A DNA stretch of 25,724 nucleotides, from the IMG/VR virus record IMGVR_UViG_2778261058_000001. One strand, written 5' to 3'. Positions 17,251 to 21,431 of this stretch are shown piece after piece (positions within the stretch are counted from its first letter, which is position 1; every line of letters begins with the position of its first letter). The translations under genes were made by a program, and so were the position numbers. Under the pieces are notes generated by a model. The model was given only the letters and a program-made list of their open reading frames with translations, had not been told where the DNA came from and did not search any database. The stretch is from a virus. Lineage: Duplodnaviria > Heunggongvirae > Uroviricota > Caudoviricetes.

Positions 17251-17565
17251 TTATTCTGGAAAAAACGCCTGAATATTCTTTTTCACCTGCTGCATATGGG
17301 GGGCGCTGTCTGCTGCTGGTTGCGCCGGTTTTTCAGGCTGCACTGGTAGCGGTGGCATCCGTATTTCGTCTTCTGACCATTCTGCCAGCGAATACGCCAA
17401 CGCGGGGGTGCGTTTTATAAGAGCCAGTCCGGCCAGAAAAGCCGCGCGTTGTGCGCGGCTGCGTTCGGAGGCTGGCAGGCTGTCGAGGTAATTGCACGCC
17501 TCCCGTTCGCTCTTGACGACGGCGGGCTTCAGATAGAAACTTATCCGTCTGGTTGGTGTCGTCAT
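17251..17565 (-). CDS. parR: plasmid partition centromere-binding protein ParR (StbB)
   Basis: Track ORF 17251..17694 trimmed to the ATG at 17565..17563 with an AAGGAG ribosome-binding site (105 aa). ISFYLKP...CNYLDSLPASERSRAQRAAFLAGLAL parallels R1 ParR (IAFKLNP...CDTLDSIPQGERSRLNRAALTAGLAL) from memory; immediately downstream of parM. Confidence 0.8.
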   Translation of the reverse strand: MTTPTRRISFYLKPAVVKSEREACNYLDSLPASERSRAQRAAFLAGLALIKRTPALAYSLAEWSEDEIRMPPLPVQPEKPAQPAADSAPHMQQVKKNIQAFFPE

Positions 17566-17569
17566 TGGT

Positions 17570-18529
17570 TTACTCCTTGTCCATTGCGTACAGCCCATTA
17601 ACCAGAGCAAACTGTGGCACCCCGTCCGCGATGAAAGTCGCATTAACTCCGCAGGCTTCGCGGATAGCGGGTGCCACAATCTCCGCTCCTCCACCTACAA
17701 CCATCACCCGCCCGTAACCCGAAAAACCCGCCAGCGCGCGGATCACGCGTTGTTTCAGTGTTTCCTCCTTTTCACGAATAACTGCCATCAGGCTGGCGTA
17801 ATGTGCGTTATTGTGGATGTGCTGGCGCAGCCAAGCTTCATCGTGGCGATGTTCGATAATGGTATTAGCGATGTGGTGACTGGTACGCATACCGTTGGTG
17901 GCCATCACCGACAGCACGGCATCGGCCATCAGAGAAACGCCTACGTGTGGATCGCAAAACACCTGGCTGATACCTGCCAGTTGTCCCTGAACCTTTGCCA
18001 CATCCAGCGTGGTTCCGCCCAAATCCACAATCAGCAGGGATTCAAACTGACTCATGTCAGCCAGTGCCTTAAAGCCAGCCGGAATGGATTCAGGCATAAC
18101 CCGTACGTTGCGGATAGTGAATGCCTCACTGTTCTGATACTCCACCGGGCGCATAACGTTCGCTTTTTTGCGGTTGATGTTGGTCATATCCGGCTGGGCG
18201 TTTGTGTCGAAATACTCGCTCAGTGGCAGGGTGACAACCACATCCACTTCCTGTGGTGTGATACCTGATTTGACCAGCGCGTGATGAATGGCAATGACAT
18301 TCACATCGCTGTACTGGTATTGCGTGTCGGTCGTCTGGACAAAGCGATCGCTGACCGGATCAAAACCATAGCGCACGCCATCAAGCATGTAGTTTGCGGG
18401 CTGCGTGCCACCGAACGGCGCAGACCATTCCGACTTGAAGCTGTTCGGGCTGATGGCGTTGCGGCGTTCGCCGTTCTCAGTCCATGCCAGCTTGATGTTG
18501 GTGGAGCCGTCGTCGATACAAATTTTCAT
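17570..18529 (-). CDS. parM: actin-like plasmid segregation ATPase ParM (StbA)
   Basis: 319 aa. MKICIDDGSTNIKLAW, ISPNSFK, YSDVNVIAIHHAL, NAQPDMTNINRKKAN, VMPESIPAG, LIVDLGGTTLDV, VMVVGGGAE and LVNGLYAM all match remembered R1 ParM motifs along the full length. Confidence 0.9.
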   Translation of the reverse strand: MKICIDDGSTNIKLAWTENGERRNAISPNSFKSEWSAPFGGTQPANYMLDGVRYGFDPVSDRFVQTTDTQYQYSDVNVIAIHHALVKSGITPQEVDVVVTLPLSEYFDTNAQPDMTNINRKKANVMRPVEYQNSEAFTIRNVRVMPESIPAGFKALADMSQFESLLIVDLGGTTLDVAKVQGQLAGISQVFCDPHVGVSLMADAVLSVMATNGMRTSHHIANTIIEHRHDEAWLRQHIHNNAHYASLMAVIREKEETLKQRVIRALAGFSGYGRVMVVGGGAEIVAPAIREACGVNATFIADGVPQFALVNGLYAMDKE

Positions 18530-18560
18530 GTCGATTTTCCTTATGTTGGTTAATTAACCG

Positions 18561-18673
18561 TTTACGGGATTCTGAAATCCCGCTTTCGCCTGTTTTGTGC
18601 GCGCTTCATATATCGCGGCGCGTTTTTTGCTCATTTACGGGATTTGTAAATCCCGTTTTTGTCTGTTTTTTGT
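18561..18673. repeat. two ~40-bp direct repeats, each with a 6-bp hairpin, upstream of parM (parC-like or origin-like)
   Basis: Copy 1 at 18561-18598 (TTTACGGGATTCTGAAATCCCGCTTTCGCCTGTTTTGT); copy 2 at 18634-18673 (TTTACGGGATTTGTAAATCCCGTTTTTGTCTGTTTTTTGT). Each contains CGGGAT-N6-ATCCCG; copies are 73 bp apart. A 12-bp palindrome GGTTAATTAACC lies at 18548-18559. Confidence 0.5.
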
Positions 18674-21431
18674 TTCCACTGGTCAGGCCACCCCGCAGCA
18701 GGTTTGCTTTGCGGCGGGCGCGTTCAGTGGTTTCACTGATTCTCTGTGCGTGCTCTGCGTCACGGATGGCGCGCAGCATGTCAGAAAGCACGGTAACGGG
18801 TGTTTTCATGGTGTTCTGGTCTTGCTGAAGTGTGGATGCCAGGCGTGCGGCGGCTTCGGGGTCTGATGCCCCCAGCTGTTCCAGATAGCTGGCGACCGGG
18901 TTATGACGGATCTCCGTGCTGCTTACGCCGTGATTGCGGCTCAGGCGCTGCCAGAGCTGCGTGATTCGGCTGTCCGGGCGGGTATCCGGTTTGCGTACAA
19001 TTTCAAATCCCTGCGGTGCAATGATGCTGCCGTCAACGTACAGGCTGCCGCCCCGTAACAGGTGCTGCATCTGCTGTTCACCGATATGCAGGCCGAGAGA
19101 TTCAGCAGACTCCCGCCATTCTTTAGCGAGTAACTCGTGGTTATCAGGCAAAGGCTGTGGCTGTTTGCGGCTCTGTGTCCAGTTCTGCATTTCATCGCTG
19201 CTGTTTTTTGCCTGTTTGTCACGAAGCGAACGCATCAGCGCCCGGCGTTCGTGCCGTTTCAGTGAGCGCATCCATTCATTTACTTCAACGCCGTCAGGAA
19301 GCTGCGGCCACGGTGCTGGCCGTTCTTCCGGCTGTTCTGTCCCGTTGTTGTCCGTTTCCTGTACACGGGGACAGTTATTGCCACGAGTCCAAGGGGCGGC
19401 AGGGCCGCCCTGAAGGTCAAAACCATTTTCGCGGGTGCTGTCTTCCGCTTCCGGTTTACGTCTTACCAGCTTCCAGTTATCCGGATGCGTGCACACACGG
19501 GAGGATTCCCCGATGAGTGGTGACCAGATCCCGTAAATCTGTACACTCTGCTCGCCGTAATCGTTCAGCTCATCTGCGAGGTCGTAGGCGGTGCGAATCA
19601 GGTAGTCTTTGCGTGGAACAAGTACGCCGCCCTGTTTCTCTATGTAGGTGGCAAAACATCCGGCATCAGCGGCAGCGAGTACCGCATCCATTGCGTCATT
19701 TTCCAGACGTTGCGGTCCCTGTGGGTTACGTGCCATCTGACAGGCAAGGCGGCGCAGTTCACGCCACACCTGACGGGAGGGGATGCCAAAGAACTGGAAC
19801 TGGCGGACCCGGTGAAGGCGCGCCCAGCCGATGGCGCGTTCCACGCTTTCTGCCATCGTCTTTCCTGATTCGTCGTCGATGCGCGGTTTGCCTGTTTTCG
19901 GGTCAATGCCATCCACGGCGCGGCTGTCCAGGTTCTTTCCGATGTAGGTGGCGATGTAGCTGGTCGGCGTACCTTTCGAACCGTCGACGTACTCTGCCTT
20001 AAAGCGCGGAGTTATGTCATTGCCCAGCTCGTGGCGGTCTTCGCGAATGGCAATATCACGGGTGATGTCCACGATGCTGTCGATTTCTTCAGGATGTGCA
20101 AAGACCATCATGTGCCAGTGCACGGTGCCGTCATGGTGAGGCTCCACCGTGCGAATGCCATACCAGCGCAGGCCGTCGCGGTTCAGTTTTTTGCGGACCG
20201 CCTTAAAAAACGTGTTAACCAGGTAATCGCTGGAATCGCGCATGGTGGCCCCGTTCCATTTGGGGTTCGGATGACCGTTCTCCGTTGTTGCGTGGTACTT
20301 CGAAGGGGTAGTGACAGTCAGAAACACCGCTTTGTCGCCACGGGCTTCGGCCAGAAGTTCCAGCCCCTTCATGGTGGCCATCATTTCTGCCTTACGGTGA
20401 ACCGGGTTACTTACTCCCGCGTAATACACTGTCTCGAGATCAATCGTGAACCCGTCTTCGTTTTCCAGCATGAAACTTTTCAGGAAATCGCGTGTTTTCT
20501 CGCGCTGTGCGCGAAACTCGCTTAACGCGTCCTGGCTCAGATAAGGCGATGTTTTTCTGGAAACCAGACAGGCGGCGCGGAGTTGTTCTTCTCTCCACTC
20601 GCAACGTAACAGCCACAGTTTGCGTTTCCACCAGTCCGCACAGGTCAGGCGAAGGATTGCGCCCGGCAGCAGTTCCGTATCCGGTTCGCTCTTGTTCAGG
20701 GCTTCGTAATGTGGCGGCATGATGTGCAGGCGTAATGCGATACGAGCCAGCATCCGGTAAGCCTTCAACATTACATCCATGGTCAGCTCGCCATCTCTGG
20801 CACCAAAGCCATCGCAGAGTGTTTCGAAGGTGCTGCTGAACATCGCCGCGGTCATGGTGGCCAGCGTCTGTATCTGGTGCTTGTTGAGCTGCGGCAGGTA
20901 AAGCAAATCGTCCAGGCGTTCGCGCCCGGCAAGGGAGCGATAACCCGGTGTCAGCCAGCGATGATCGGTGCGGTCCAGACGTTCGAATATTTTGCGCAGG
21001 GTCCCACGCGCATAGCGTTCTGCCTGCCTAGCGTTTTTTCCTTTCTGACGATCGGCTTCCTGTTTTTTGCGCAGGAAGGAGAGGTGGCGGCTCAGTGGTT
21101 CACGCAGATAAACAGGTAGTGCCTTTAGTGTGGCAAAGGCACGGGCTACTGGGTCTTGTTCTGTTGCCCGGCGCTTACTGATGATGCTCTGTGCCAGCTT
21201 TTCACGCTGTCCGGCTTCCTCAAGGGATGCCATGAGTTTTTTACCCATGGCGGATTGTGCGAAAAAGGCTTCTTCCTTCGCTTCCTGTTCTTCCCGTGCC
21301 CTTTTGTCTGCCTCAAGGTAGTAACGGATGGCGCGTTGCAGGTCGGTTTCAGTTTCCTGCCTGCGCTCCGTAAATCTGGCCGGATCAATGGCTGGCCGTG
21401 GTTCATTCCAGCTCCATGCAAACTCGCTCAT
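18606..21431 (-). CDS. A: rolling-circle replication initiator (HUH endonuclease), P2 gpA-like
   Basis: Track ORF 18606..21458 trimmed to the ATG at 21431..21429, which overlaps the upstream stop (ATGA); 941 aa. HUH motif VHWHMMVF and tyrosine motif TSYIATYIGKN (Y-x3-Y then K) as in P2 and phiX174 gene A proteins. Convergent with Q/P as in P2. Confidence 0.8.
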   Translation of the reverse strand: MSEFAWSWNEPRPAIDPARFTERRQETETDLQRAIRYYLEADKRAREEQEAKEEAFFAQSAMGKKLMASLEEAGQREKLAQSIISKRRATEQDPVARAFATLKALPVYLREPLSRHLSFLRKKQEADRQKGKNARQAERYARGTLRKIFERLDRTDHRWLTPGYRSLAGRERLDDLLYLPQLNKHQIQTLATMTAAMFSSTFETLCDGFGARDGELTMDVMLKAYRMLARIALRLHIMPPHYEALNKSEPDTELLPGAILRLTCADWWKRKLWLLRCEWREEQLRAACLVSRKTSPYLSQDALSEFRAQREKTRDFLKSFMLENEDGFTIDLETVYYAGVSNPVHRKAEMMATMKGLELLAEARGDKAVFLTVTTPSKYHATTENGHPNPKWNGATMRDSSDYLVNTFFKAVRKKLNRDGLRWYGIRTVEPHHDGTVHWHMMVFAHPEEIDSIVDITRDIAIREDRHELGNDITPRFKAEYVDGSKGTPTSYIATYIGKNLDSRAVDGIDPKTGKPRIDDESGKTMAESVERAIGWARLHRVRQFQFFGIPSRQVWRELRRLACQMARNPQGPQRLENDAMDAVLAAADAGCFATYIEKQGGVLVPRKDYLIRTAYDLADELNDYGEQSVQIYGIWSPLIGESSRVCTHPDNWKLVRRKPEAEDSTRENGFDLQGGPAAPWTRGNNCPRVQETDNNGTEQPEERPAPWPQLPDGVEVNEWMRSLKRHERRALMRSLRDKQAKNSSDEMQNWTQSRKQPQPLPDNHELLAKEWRESAESLGLHIGEQQMQHLLRGGSLYVDGSIIAPQGFEIVRKPDTRPDSRITQLWQRLSRNHGVSSTEIRHNPVASYLEQLGASDPEAAARLASTLQQDQNTMKTPVTVLSDMLRAIRDAEHAQRISETTERARRKANLLRGGLTSGNKKQTKTGFTNPVNEQKTRRDI

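Follow-up and report, generated by a model that had tools for sequence, protein, structure and literature searches.

Genes and repeats at the parM-parR locus

The window, by which we mean the whole stretch of DNA analysed (25,724 nt, 25.7 kb), is a P88-like prophage (genus Xuanwuvirus, Peduoviridae, P2 family), in which gene A, parM, and parR are all encoded on the minus strand. Of 5426 complete E. coli genomes, 1374 gave a match to a 2.2-kb query around the repeats described below. The query showed 95%–96% identity to phage P88 and its relatives and 99.2% identity to a prophage in E. coli A36. A record from a complete E. coli genome (NZ_CP148288.1, our locus L122), deposited as a circular 'plasmid' of 34,461 bp, is a whole P88-like genome including the integrase. 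It could represent a phage that has been excised or is replicating, or a plasmid-like state.

Gene A (18606..21431, minus strand) encodes a P2-type HUH replication endonuclease (PF05840, 1.3e-129). Its ATG is at 21431, the reading frame is open back to 21458, and its TGA is at 18608–18606. The C-terminal ~145 aa of the A protein (18609–19040) had no counterpart in the phage collection outside the P88-like phages; other phages matched only the first 120 residues of a 264-aa A query, with ~30% identity. The parM gene (17570..18529, minus strand, ATG at 18529) encodes an actin-like partition ATPase of 319 aa, as seen from the matches to PF06406 (3.8e-82) and PF21523 (1.1e-68) and to the structure of R1 ParM (1MWK, E 5.5e-92). 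It is followed by parR (17251..17565, minus strand), which encodes a ribbon-helix-helix adaptor of 104 aa (PF10784, 1.4e-24) that matches the structure of pB171 ParR (2JD3, E 0.0084) over residues 6–62, i.e., over the ribbon-helix-helix domain. The N-terminal strand of ParR reads TRRISFYL and its conserved C-terminal tail reads KKNIQAFFPE. Among the P88-like prophages of E. coli the ParR proteins are diverse (48%–95% identity), compared to 97%–99% identity for ParM, and only the N-terminal strand TRRISFYLKP and the C-terminal tail are constant in these diverse ParR proteins.

Two direct repeats of 39 nt were found by the repeat search upstream of parM, at 18561–18599 and 18634–18672. The copies are 82% identical and are separated by 73 nt from start to start. 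Each repeat carries an 18-bp palindrome of the form CGGGAT-N6-ATCCCG (18565–18582 and 18638–18655). On the + strand, the centres of the palindromes are unlike (TCTGAA and TTGTAA) and each palindrome is followed by a T-rich tail. We refer to the palindromes as box 1 and box 2. Box 1, the proximal box (18565..18582, minus strand; sense strand CGGGATTTCAGAATCCCG), is the core of the repeat at 18561–18599, which lies in the 76-bp gap between A and parM; its GGG is 52 nt upstream of the parM ATG. Box 2, the distal box (18638..18655, minus strand; sense strand CGGGATTTACAAATCCCG), is the core of the repeat at 18634–18672, and its GGG precedes the parM ATG by 125 nt. The 3' end of gene A overlaps box 2, and the distal repeat lies within the last 22 codons of A, where it is read as KKQTKTGFTNPVNE. 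The sequence-only reading had described two repeats of about 40 bp at a distance of 73 bp, with the same palindrome but different loops and with T-rich tails, and one copy inside the last codons of gene A. All of this was borne out, the tails being those of the + strand.

The inter-box spacer of 55 bp (18583..18637, minus strand) holds the stop codon of A (18606–18608) and an imperfect palindrome. Among relatives its length is kept, while its sequence changes. The imperfect palindrome (18599–18622, sense CGCGCCGCGATATATGAAGCGCGC) extends across the stop codon and is built of G+C, AT, and G+C blocks. It seems to be dispensable, since a different sequence patch replaces it in several relatives and in the second E. 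coli lineage, L118. An A-rich flank (18656..18690, minus strand) lies 5' of box 2 on the sense strand and contributes, along with the A-tracts between the boxes, to the AA periodicity described below.

The exact palindrome CGGGAT-N6-ATCCCG occurs at only two places in the 25.7-kb window. For the family-wide form of the box, YGGG[ATG][TC]-N6-[AG][ATC]CCCR, we observed two occurrences in the window versus 0.29 expected, and for a pair of GGG-N10-CCC motifs 70–75 bp apart the expectation was 0.016 per window. Because of this low chance expectation we regard the repeats as confirmed and not as a product of chance. No further boxes or half-sites were present in the region 18480–18800 or in the whole window.

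The promoter scan revealed no sigma-70-like promoter in this region of the window or in the homologous regions of Hafnia and Plesiomonas. In an R1-like parC, used as positive control, the same scan detected TTGACT-16-TAAACT in the stretch that separates the iteron arms. Candidates selected manually were all weak (TGAGCA..TATATG and TTTCAG with an ATTAAC/ATTAAT hexamer). As parMR has no visible promoter of its own, it is probably transcribed by read-through from gene A in the early operon. The translation-initiation region of parM (18537..18557, minus strand) comprises the Shine-Dalgarno sequence AAGGAA (18537–18542) and, just before it on the sense strand, TTAAT (18553–18557), which lies ~25–30 nt upstream of the parM ATG and is invariant in the six lineages compared below. 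TTAAT may belong either to a weak -10-like element or to the translation-initiation region.

Replication origin and distribution of the boxes

Two functions had been suggested for the repeats from the letters of the window, a parC centromere and promoter bound by ParR, or a nick site/origin for the HUH protein A. The second suggestion draws on the location of the boxes at the 3' end of A and on that of the P2 origin, which is likewise within gene A (nick site annotated at NC_001895:29892). Protein alignment of A (31% identity) together with DNA alignment placed the homologue of the P2 nick site at 19361..19400 (minus strand), also inside gene A (window GGCGGCCCTGCCGCCCCTTGGACTCGTGGCAATAACTGT, P2 AGCGGCATCGCCGCGCCTCGGAGTCCTGTCAATAACTGT). 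The P2 site did not align to the repeat region 18561–18672. The mapped position puts the origin ~750 bp away from the repeats. The DNA at 19361–19400 is far better conserved than predicted from A proteins that are 31% identical. In the distant P2-like phages (Klebsiella, Salmonella, Yersinia) among the matches listed, megablast found nothing of the 2.2-kb query but the 36 nt at 19363–19398, with 97% identity. The distribution of the boxes described below also speaks against a nick site for protein A, as they are not inherited together with A. Once the annotated nick site of P2 had been located in the window, we rejected the origin reading of the repeats, to which we assign next to no probability.

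The sequence upstream of parM was compared in an alignment of six lineages (two from E. coli, two from Hafnia, Plesiomonas, and P88). The only invariant blocks were GGGA..CCC, which is present twice, and TTAAT. As measured from the parM ATG, the boxes are at -125 and -52 in the E. coli-type loci, at -128 and -55 in Hafnia (L083), and at -131 and -59 in Plesiomonas (L086). Of the 86 E. coli-type loci, 84 had the boxes at a spacing of 73 bp, as did Hafnia L083 and the second lineages of E. coli (L118) and Hafnia (L121); in Plesiomonas the spacing was 72 bp. What is kept of the repeats in these relatives are the GGG-N10-CCC boxes, which are invariant over the six lineages.

A search with ParM, combined with a look-up of the contigs, revealed a clade of P2-like prophages with parM-parR downstream of A in Hafnia, Plesiomonas, Serratia, and Enterobacter. 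In Hafnia L083 an ORF of 167 aa separates A from parM, and the boxes lie in the 3' end of this ORF and in the gap after it. The A protein of this locus is 33% identical to A of the window and thus no closer to it than A of P2 (31%). The Serratia loci lack the boxes, although their A protein is 47% identical to that of the window. By these sequence comparisons, the boxes follow parM/parR and not A.

The presence of the boxes coincided with one type of ParR. In every box-bearing locus ParR starts with TRR[IV]SFYLKP. No boxes were found in loci with ParR of the types NRKISFYL (Serratia, Enterobacter), NRKCSFYI (IncL/M plasmids), RRKITFYL, or RRTIAFKL (R1-like); box-less loci with such other ParR types have different repeats at the same position upstream of parM. 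Within E. coli, the ParR strand and the boxes are kept while the rest of ParR is very variable. In ribbon-helix-helix proteins, the N-terminal strand is the part that enters the major groove of the DNA.

We also scanned 2.9 million viral contigs for paired boxes and obtained 113 new loci, which are related by descent so that their number does not count independent events. The parM start was located 124–126 nt downstream of the distal box in 108 of them, and four were unrelated chance matches. The remaining locus (L213 6330–6560, an IMG/VR prophage) is a decaying copy: both boxes have been kept, whereas a rearrangement has truncated parM after 15 codons, and an ORF of 420 aa is present on the opposite strand. 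The association between boxes and ParR holds across five to six divergent lineages. Scanning IMG/VR with ParM of the window returned only relatives with 98%–100% identity, and the IMG/VR scans with ParM of Hafnia and of Plesiomonas gave 0 and 1 loci, respectively. A scan of GTDB with the ParM alignment gave 18 loci, mostly with plasmid-type ParM.

The loci from Serratia (L087, L098, L102) and those of the Enterobacter type (L088, L089, L117) form a sister clade with the ParR strand NRKISFYL and a different element ~40–150 nt upstream of parM. This element consists of the inverted arms GGGAAC.A.ATAGAAAAAT and ATTTTTCT.TTTC.TTCCC, which are 26–28 nt apart and enclose a G+C-rich centre. In Enterobacter it is located upstream of parM although A is 1.2 kb distant.

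The palindromes and their fixed spacing would suit any dimeric regulator, and the link to ParR is a correlation. The boxes might thus be bound by another protein, a phage regulator or a host factor, that controls parMR in place of ParR. Three observations argue for ParR instead. Only parM and parR are consistently linked to the boxes across the six lineages, while the neighbouring cargo genes differ; A of one box-bearing lineage is as divergent as A of P2; and the presence of the boxes tracks the type of the ParR beta-strand. We consider a different DNA-binding protein unlikely and regard ParR as the better candidate.

Half-site variation, hairpins, and coding potential

The 86 E. coli-type loci comprise 22 haplotypes of the box pair. 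The change CGGGAT>CAGGAT recurs at three of the four half-sites and affects left as well as right arms. For a hairpin on either strand the two arms are not equivalent with regard to this change, because it results in a G-U wobble on one arm and in an A-C mismatch on the other. For a symmetric protein site it is one and the same tolerated change on both arms. The centres of the boxes were the most variable columns. Within E. coli, polymorphism is not lower in the half-sites than in the neighbouring DNA (pi 0.043 versus 0.03–0.06), and since diversity within E. coli does not single them out, our argument is based on conservation across genera. The core conserved at this level is GGG and CCC at a distance of 10 bp, together with the box spacing of 72–73 bp. 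As judged from sequence, this fixed geometry is the signature of a protein-binding palindrome.

The repeats had originally been noticed as hairpins. Folding is indeed possible for each copy (-10.7 to -13.9 kcal/mol, z -0.9 to -3.4), yet what is conserved in relatives is not the stem. This bears on a further explanation, in which the boxes form RNA hairpins in the A-parM interval of the sense early mRNA and affect processing, stability, or translational coupling. On the sense strand, both copies fold, with -10.7 and -13.9 kcal/mol (z -3.4 and -1.8), and the frequent replacement of CCCG by CCTG in box 1, seen in ~20 of 86 loci, retains a G-U pair on this strand. On the other hand, left-arm CGGG>CAGG leads to A-C mismatches, nothing compensates for the frequent T>C change in the upper part of the stem, and no compensatory change was found in stem pairs 2–7. 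In Plesiomonas and Hafnia, only 3–4 G-C pairs and a 10-nt loop are left of the stems. Furthermore, an isolated hairpin needs neither the fixed length of N10 nor the spacing of 72–73 bp. RNA hairpins on the sense strand are disfavoured by the pair counts and by the recurrence of one half-site change independent of the arm, and we hold them to be improbable.

A related possibility was that the boxes are Rho-independent terminators on the + strand that halt antisense transcription into gene A. The terminator scan flagged the distal copy on the + strand (8-bp stem, 4-nt loop, T-run), and the proximal copy gains a T5 run in most E. coli relatives. A conserved stem followed by a U-run on the transcribed strand was not seen, however. 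The flagged site is restricted to the distal copy and to the antisense strand, and neither hairpin is followed by a U-tract on the sense strand. No + strand gene is present for 2.5 kb upstream, the + strand ORFs in this stretch being antisense to parM. The homologues of Hafnia and Plesiomonas lack a terminator-like site; they have kept the boxes but not the T-runs. Terminators on the + strand were rejected because of the missing upstream gene and the lack of conservation of the T-run in other genera; we consider them very improbable.

We also considered that a local duplication of the C-terminal coding sequence of A left the repeats behind as a remnant without function. In A, the distal copy is translated into KTGFTNPVN. 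In the same register, the proximal copy yields KAGFQNPVN within an ORF of 26 codons (18557–18634, minus strand, MSKKRAAIYEARTKQAKAGFQNPVNG) that overlaps the end of A. This ORF is intact in 83 of 86 relatives. Its polymorphic sites are spread over the three codon positions in a ratio of 10/11/11, compared to 16/13/30 for A and 3/3/8 for parM, and this flat spread indicates that no coding constraint acts on it. The peptide is not kept in Plesiomonas or Hafnia, while GGG-N10-CCC and the spacing are, and the register in Hafnia is different. Outside of the 39-nt repeat, the remaining 34 nt of the two 73-nt units are unrelated. The flat distribution over codon positions and the lack of a counterpart peptide in other genera led us to reject a coding repeat. 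The 26-codon ORF is probably not a gene but incidental, and there is very little likelihood that the repeats are a mere duplication remnant.

A putative ParR site and its relation to known systems

In type II systems, parC is located upstream of the operon and is sometimes split in two (PMC5016525). In the window the two boxes lie directly upstream of the parM-parR operon, an actin-like ParM and its cognate ribbon-helix-helix ParR are encoded alongside, and the repeated elements occur only with ParR of the type TRR[IV]SFYL. An array of tandem direct iterons of ~10–20 bp, as typical for a type II centromere, was not found; there are two palindromic boxes only. We conclude that the two boxes are likely to be a cis-acting parC-type centromere/operator, i.e., the putative ParR site, of the type II parM-parR module of the phage. 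Several findings weigh against this conclusion: the boxes are two palindromes in place of several direct iterons, a promoter was not detected, diversity within E. coli does not set the half-sites apart, the phasing of A-tracts is missing from Hafnia and Plesiomonas, and box 1 has CCTG in place of CCCG in ~20 of 86 loci. From the initial suggestion of a parC centromere and promoter bound by ParR, the centromere part stands, based on the position, the fixed distance to parM, the co-occurrence with the ParR strand, and the half-site-like variation. The promoter part, which would agree with type II centromeres that contain or overlap a par promoter repressed by ParR, found no support, as no sigma-70-like site was detected; the region may still hold a weak or non-canonical promoter.

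Binding of ParR to the boxes is predicted, and we infer the stoichiometry of ParR on the boxes as well as an activity in segregation or repression. The ribbon-helix-helix ParR would read half-sites of the form YGGG[A/T/G][T/C] with its N-terminal beta-strand TRRISFYL. In each 18-bp box the half-site centres are ~12 bp apart, roughly one helical turn, so that two ParR dimers could be placed side by side. Ribbon-helix-helix repressors are known to seat two dimers side by side on half-sites of such geometry. As 73 bp corresponds to ~7 helical turns, both boxes would be on the same face of the DNA. DNA with phased A-tracts between and beside the boxes might help the DNA to wrap. The ParR-DNA complex would then offer the conserved C-terminal tails of ParR to the ends of ParM filaments, as in R1, where the ParR tails are presented in this way (PMC5016525). 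ParR bound to the boxes may, at most, modulate the read-through from A or a weak promoter near box 1, and ParR might autoregulate parMR.

AA dinucleotides in the region 18545–18690 showed a periodicity of 10.5 bp, and 0 of 1000 shuffles reached the observed power. An R1-like parC showed the same periodicity (1 of 1000 shuffles). It was not seen in the Hafnia or Plesiomonas homologues, and for this reason we treat the phasing of A-tracts as a side observation only. It hints at phased DNA and not at defined iterons.

In the literature searched we found no published description of the cis site or of the role of the P88-type parM-parR pair, although the genes themselves are already annotated. Judging by the nucleotide comparisons, the site would work like a type II parC of unusual layout, composed of two palindromic boxes, with one arm inside a coding sequence and without a visible promoter. 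A type II centromere of this kind, very small, palindromic, overlapping with coding sequence, and seemingly devoid of a promoter of its own, would be a natural case for studying the minimum number of ParR sites needed to link DNA to ParM filaments. We can also speculate, with considerable reserve, that P88-like phages of the P2 family, which integrate as P2 does, use a minimal two-palindrome centromere within the early replication operon to position or segregate their extrachromosomal genomes, either in a plasmid-like carrier state or during replication after induction. If this were true, partition would be coupled to gene A both physically and transcriptionally, and the circular record NZ_CP148288.1 would fit. 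The two defined 18-bp boxes offer a testable approach to the question of why a phage that integrates has retained the partition machinery of a plasmid, and their description keeps annotators from taking the repeats for an origin or for terminators.

Among the known systems closest to the site is parC of plasmid R1, which consists of ten 11-bp iterons in two arms that flank the par promoter. The parC of pSK41 has 4 x 20 bp, and the ParR sites of both R1 and pSK41 are direct repeats and not palindromes. The site in the window resembles R1 parC in its location directly upstream of parM-parR, with homologous proteins (1MWK, E 5.5e-92; PF10784), and in its bipartite layout with repeat blocks at an offset of ~72–73 bp and with a 10.5-bp periodicity of A-tracts. 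The comparison with parC iterons, which had been suggested as a check, confirmed this resemblance: the iteron blocks of R1-like and IncL/M parC show an offset of 72–73 bp like that of the boxes. Corresponding iteron units are offset by 72 bp in an R1-like parC (L091 1029–1164) and by 73 bp in an IncL/M parC of the pOXA-48 type (L093 1066–1178). The two sites differ in several respects. R1 has ten direct iterons versus two palindromic boxes in the window. The R1-like control has a promoter between its arms (TTGACT-16-TAAACT), while none is recognizable in the window, and in the window one arm forms part of the coding sequence of the replication gene upstream. The reading strand of ParR is RRTIAFKL in the R1-like system and TRRISFYL in the window. 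The P2 origin shares with the boxes a location inside the A gene of a P2-family phage, but the P2-type site at 19361–19400 is unlike the repeats in sequence and in place.

Palindromic operators are bound by the ribbon-helix-helix proteins Arc, Mnt, and CopG, which are pure repressors and not ParM adaptors. The boxes resemble such operators in having short inverted half-sites about one helical turn apart, which suits two ribbon-helix-helix dimers. Ribbon-helix-helix partition proteins accept both direct and inverted repeats, as known for omega and ParG. Both are mentioned in PMC5016525.

Two further systems, on elements other than plasmids, are the closest parallels in function. Like the module in the window, SrpMRC of the SXT/R391 ICEs with its site srpC is a type II partition module on a normally integrating element (PMC4489591). 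SrpR has no recognizable similarity to ParR, whereas the adaptor of the window is a bona fide PF10784 protein, and the srpC repeats are unlike those of the window in sequence and number. SrpMRC is under the control of SetCD and has experimental support (PMC4489591), while the site in the window is predicted from its sequence. AlpAC with its site alpS from the Corynebacterium prophage CGP3 combines an actin-like filament with a DNA-binding adaptor that has specific sites, and was proposed to move or position phage DNA (PMC5539076). Its actin-like and adaptor families are distant from those of the window, host and type of phage are different, and the sites are unrelated; the likeness lies in a prophage that encodes both an actin-like filament and a site-specific DNA-binding adaptor.
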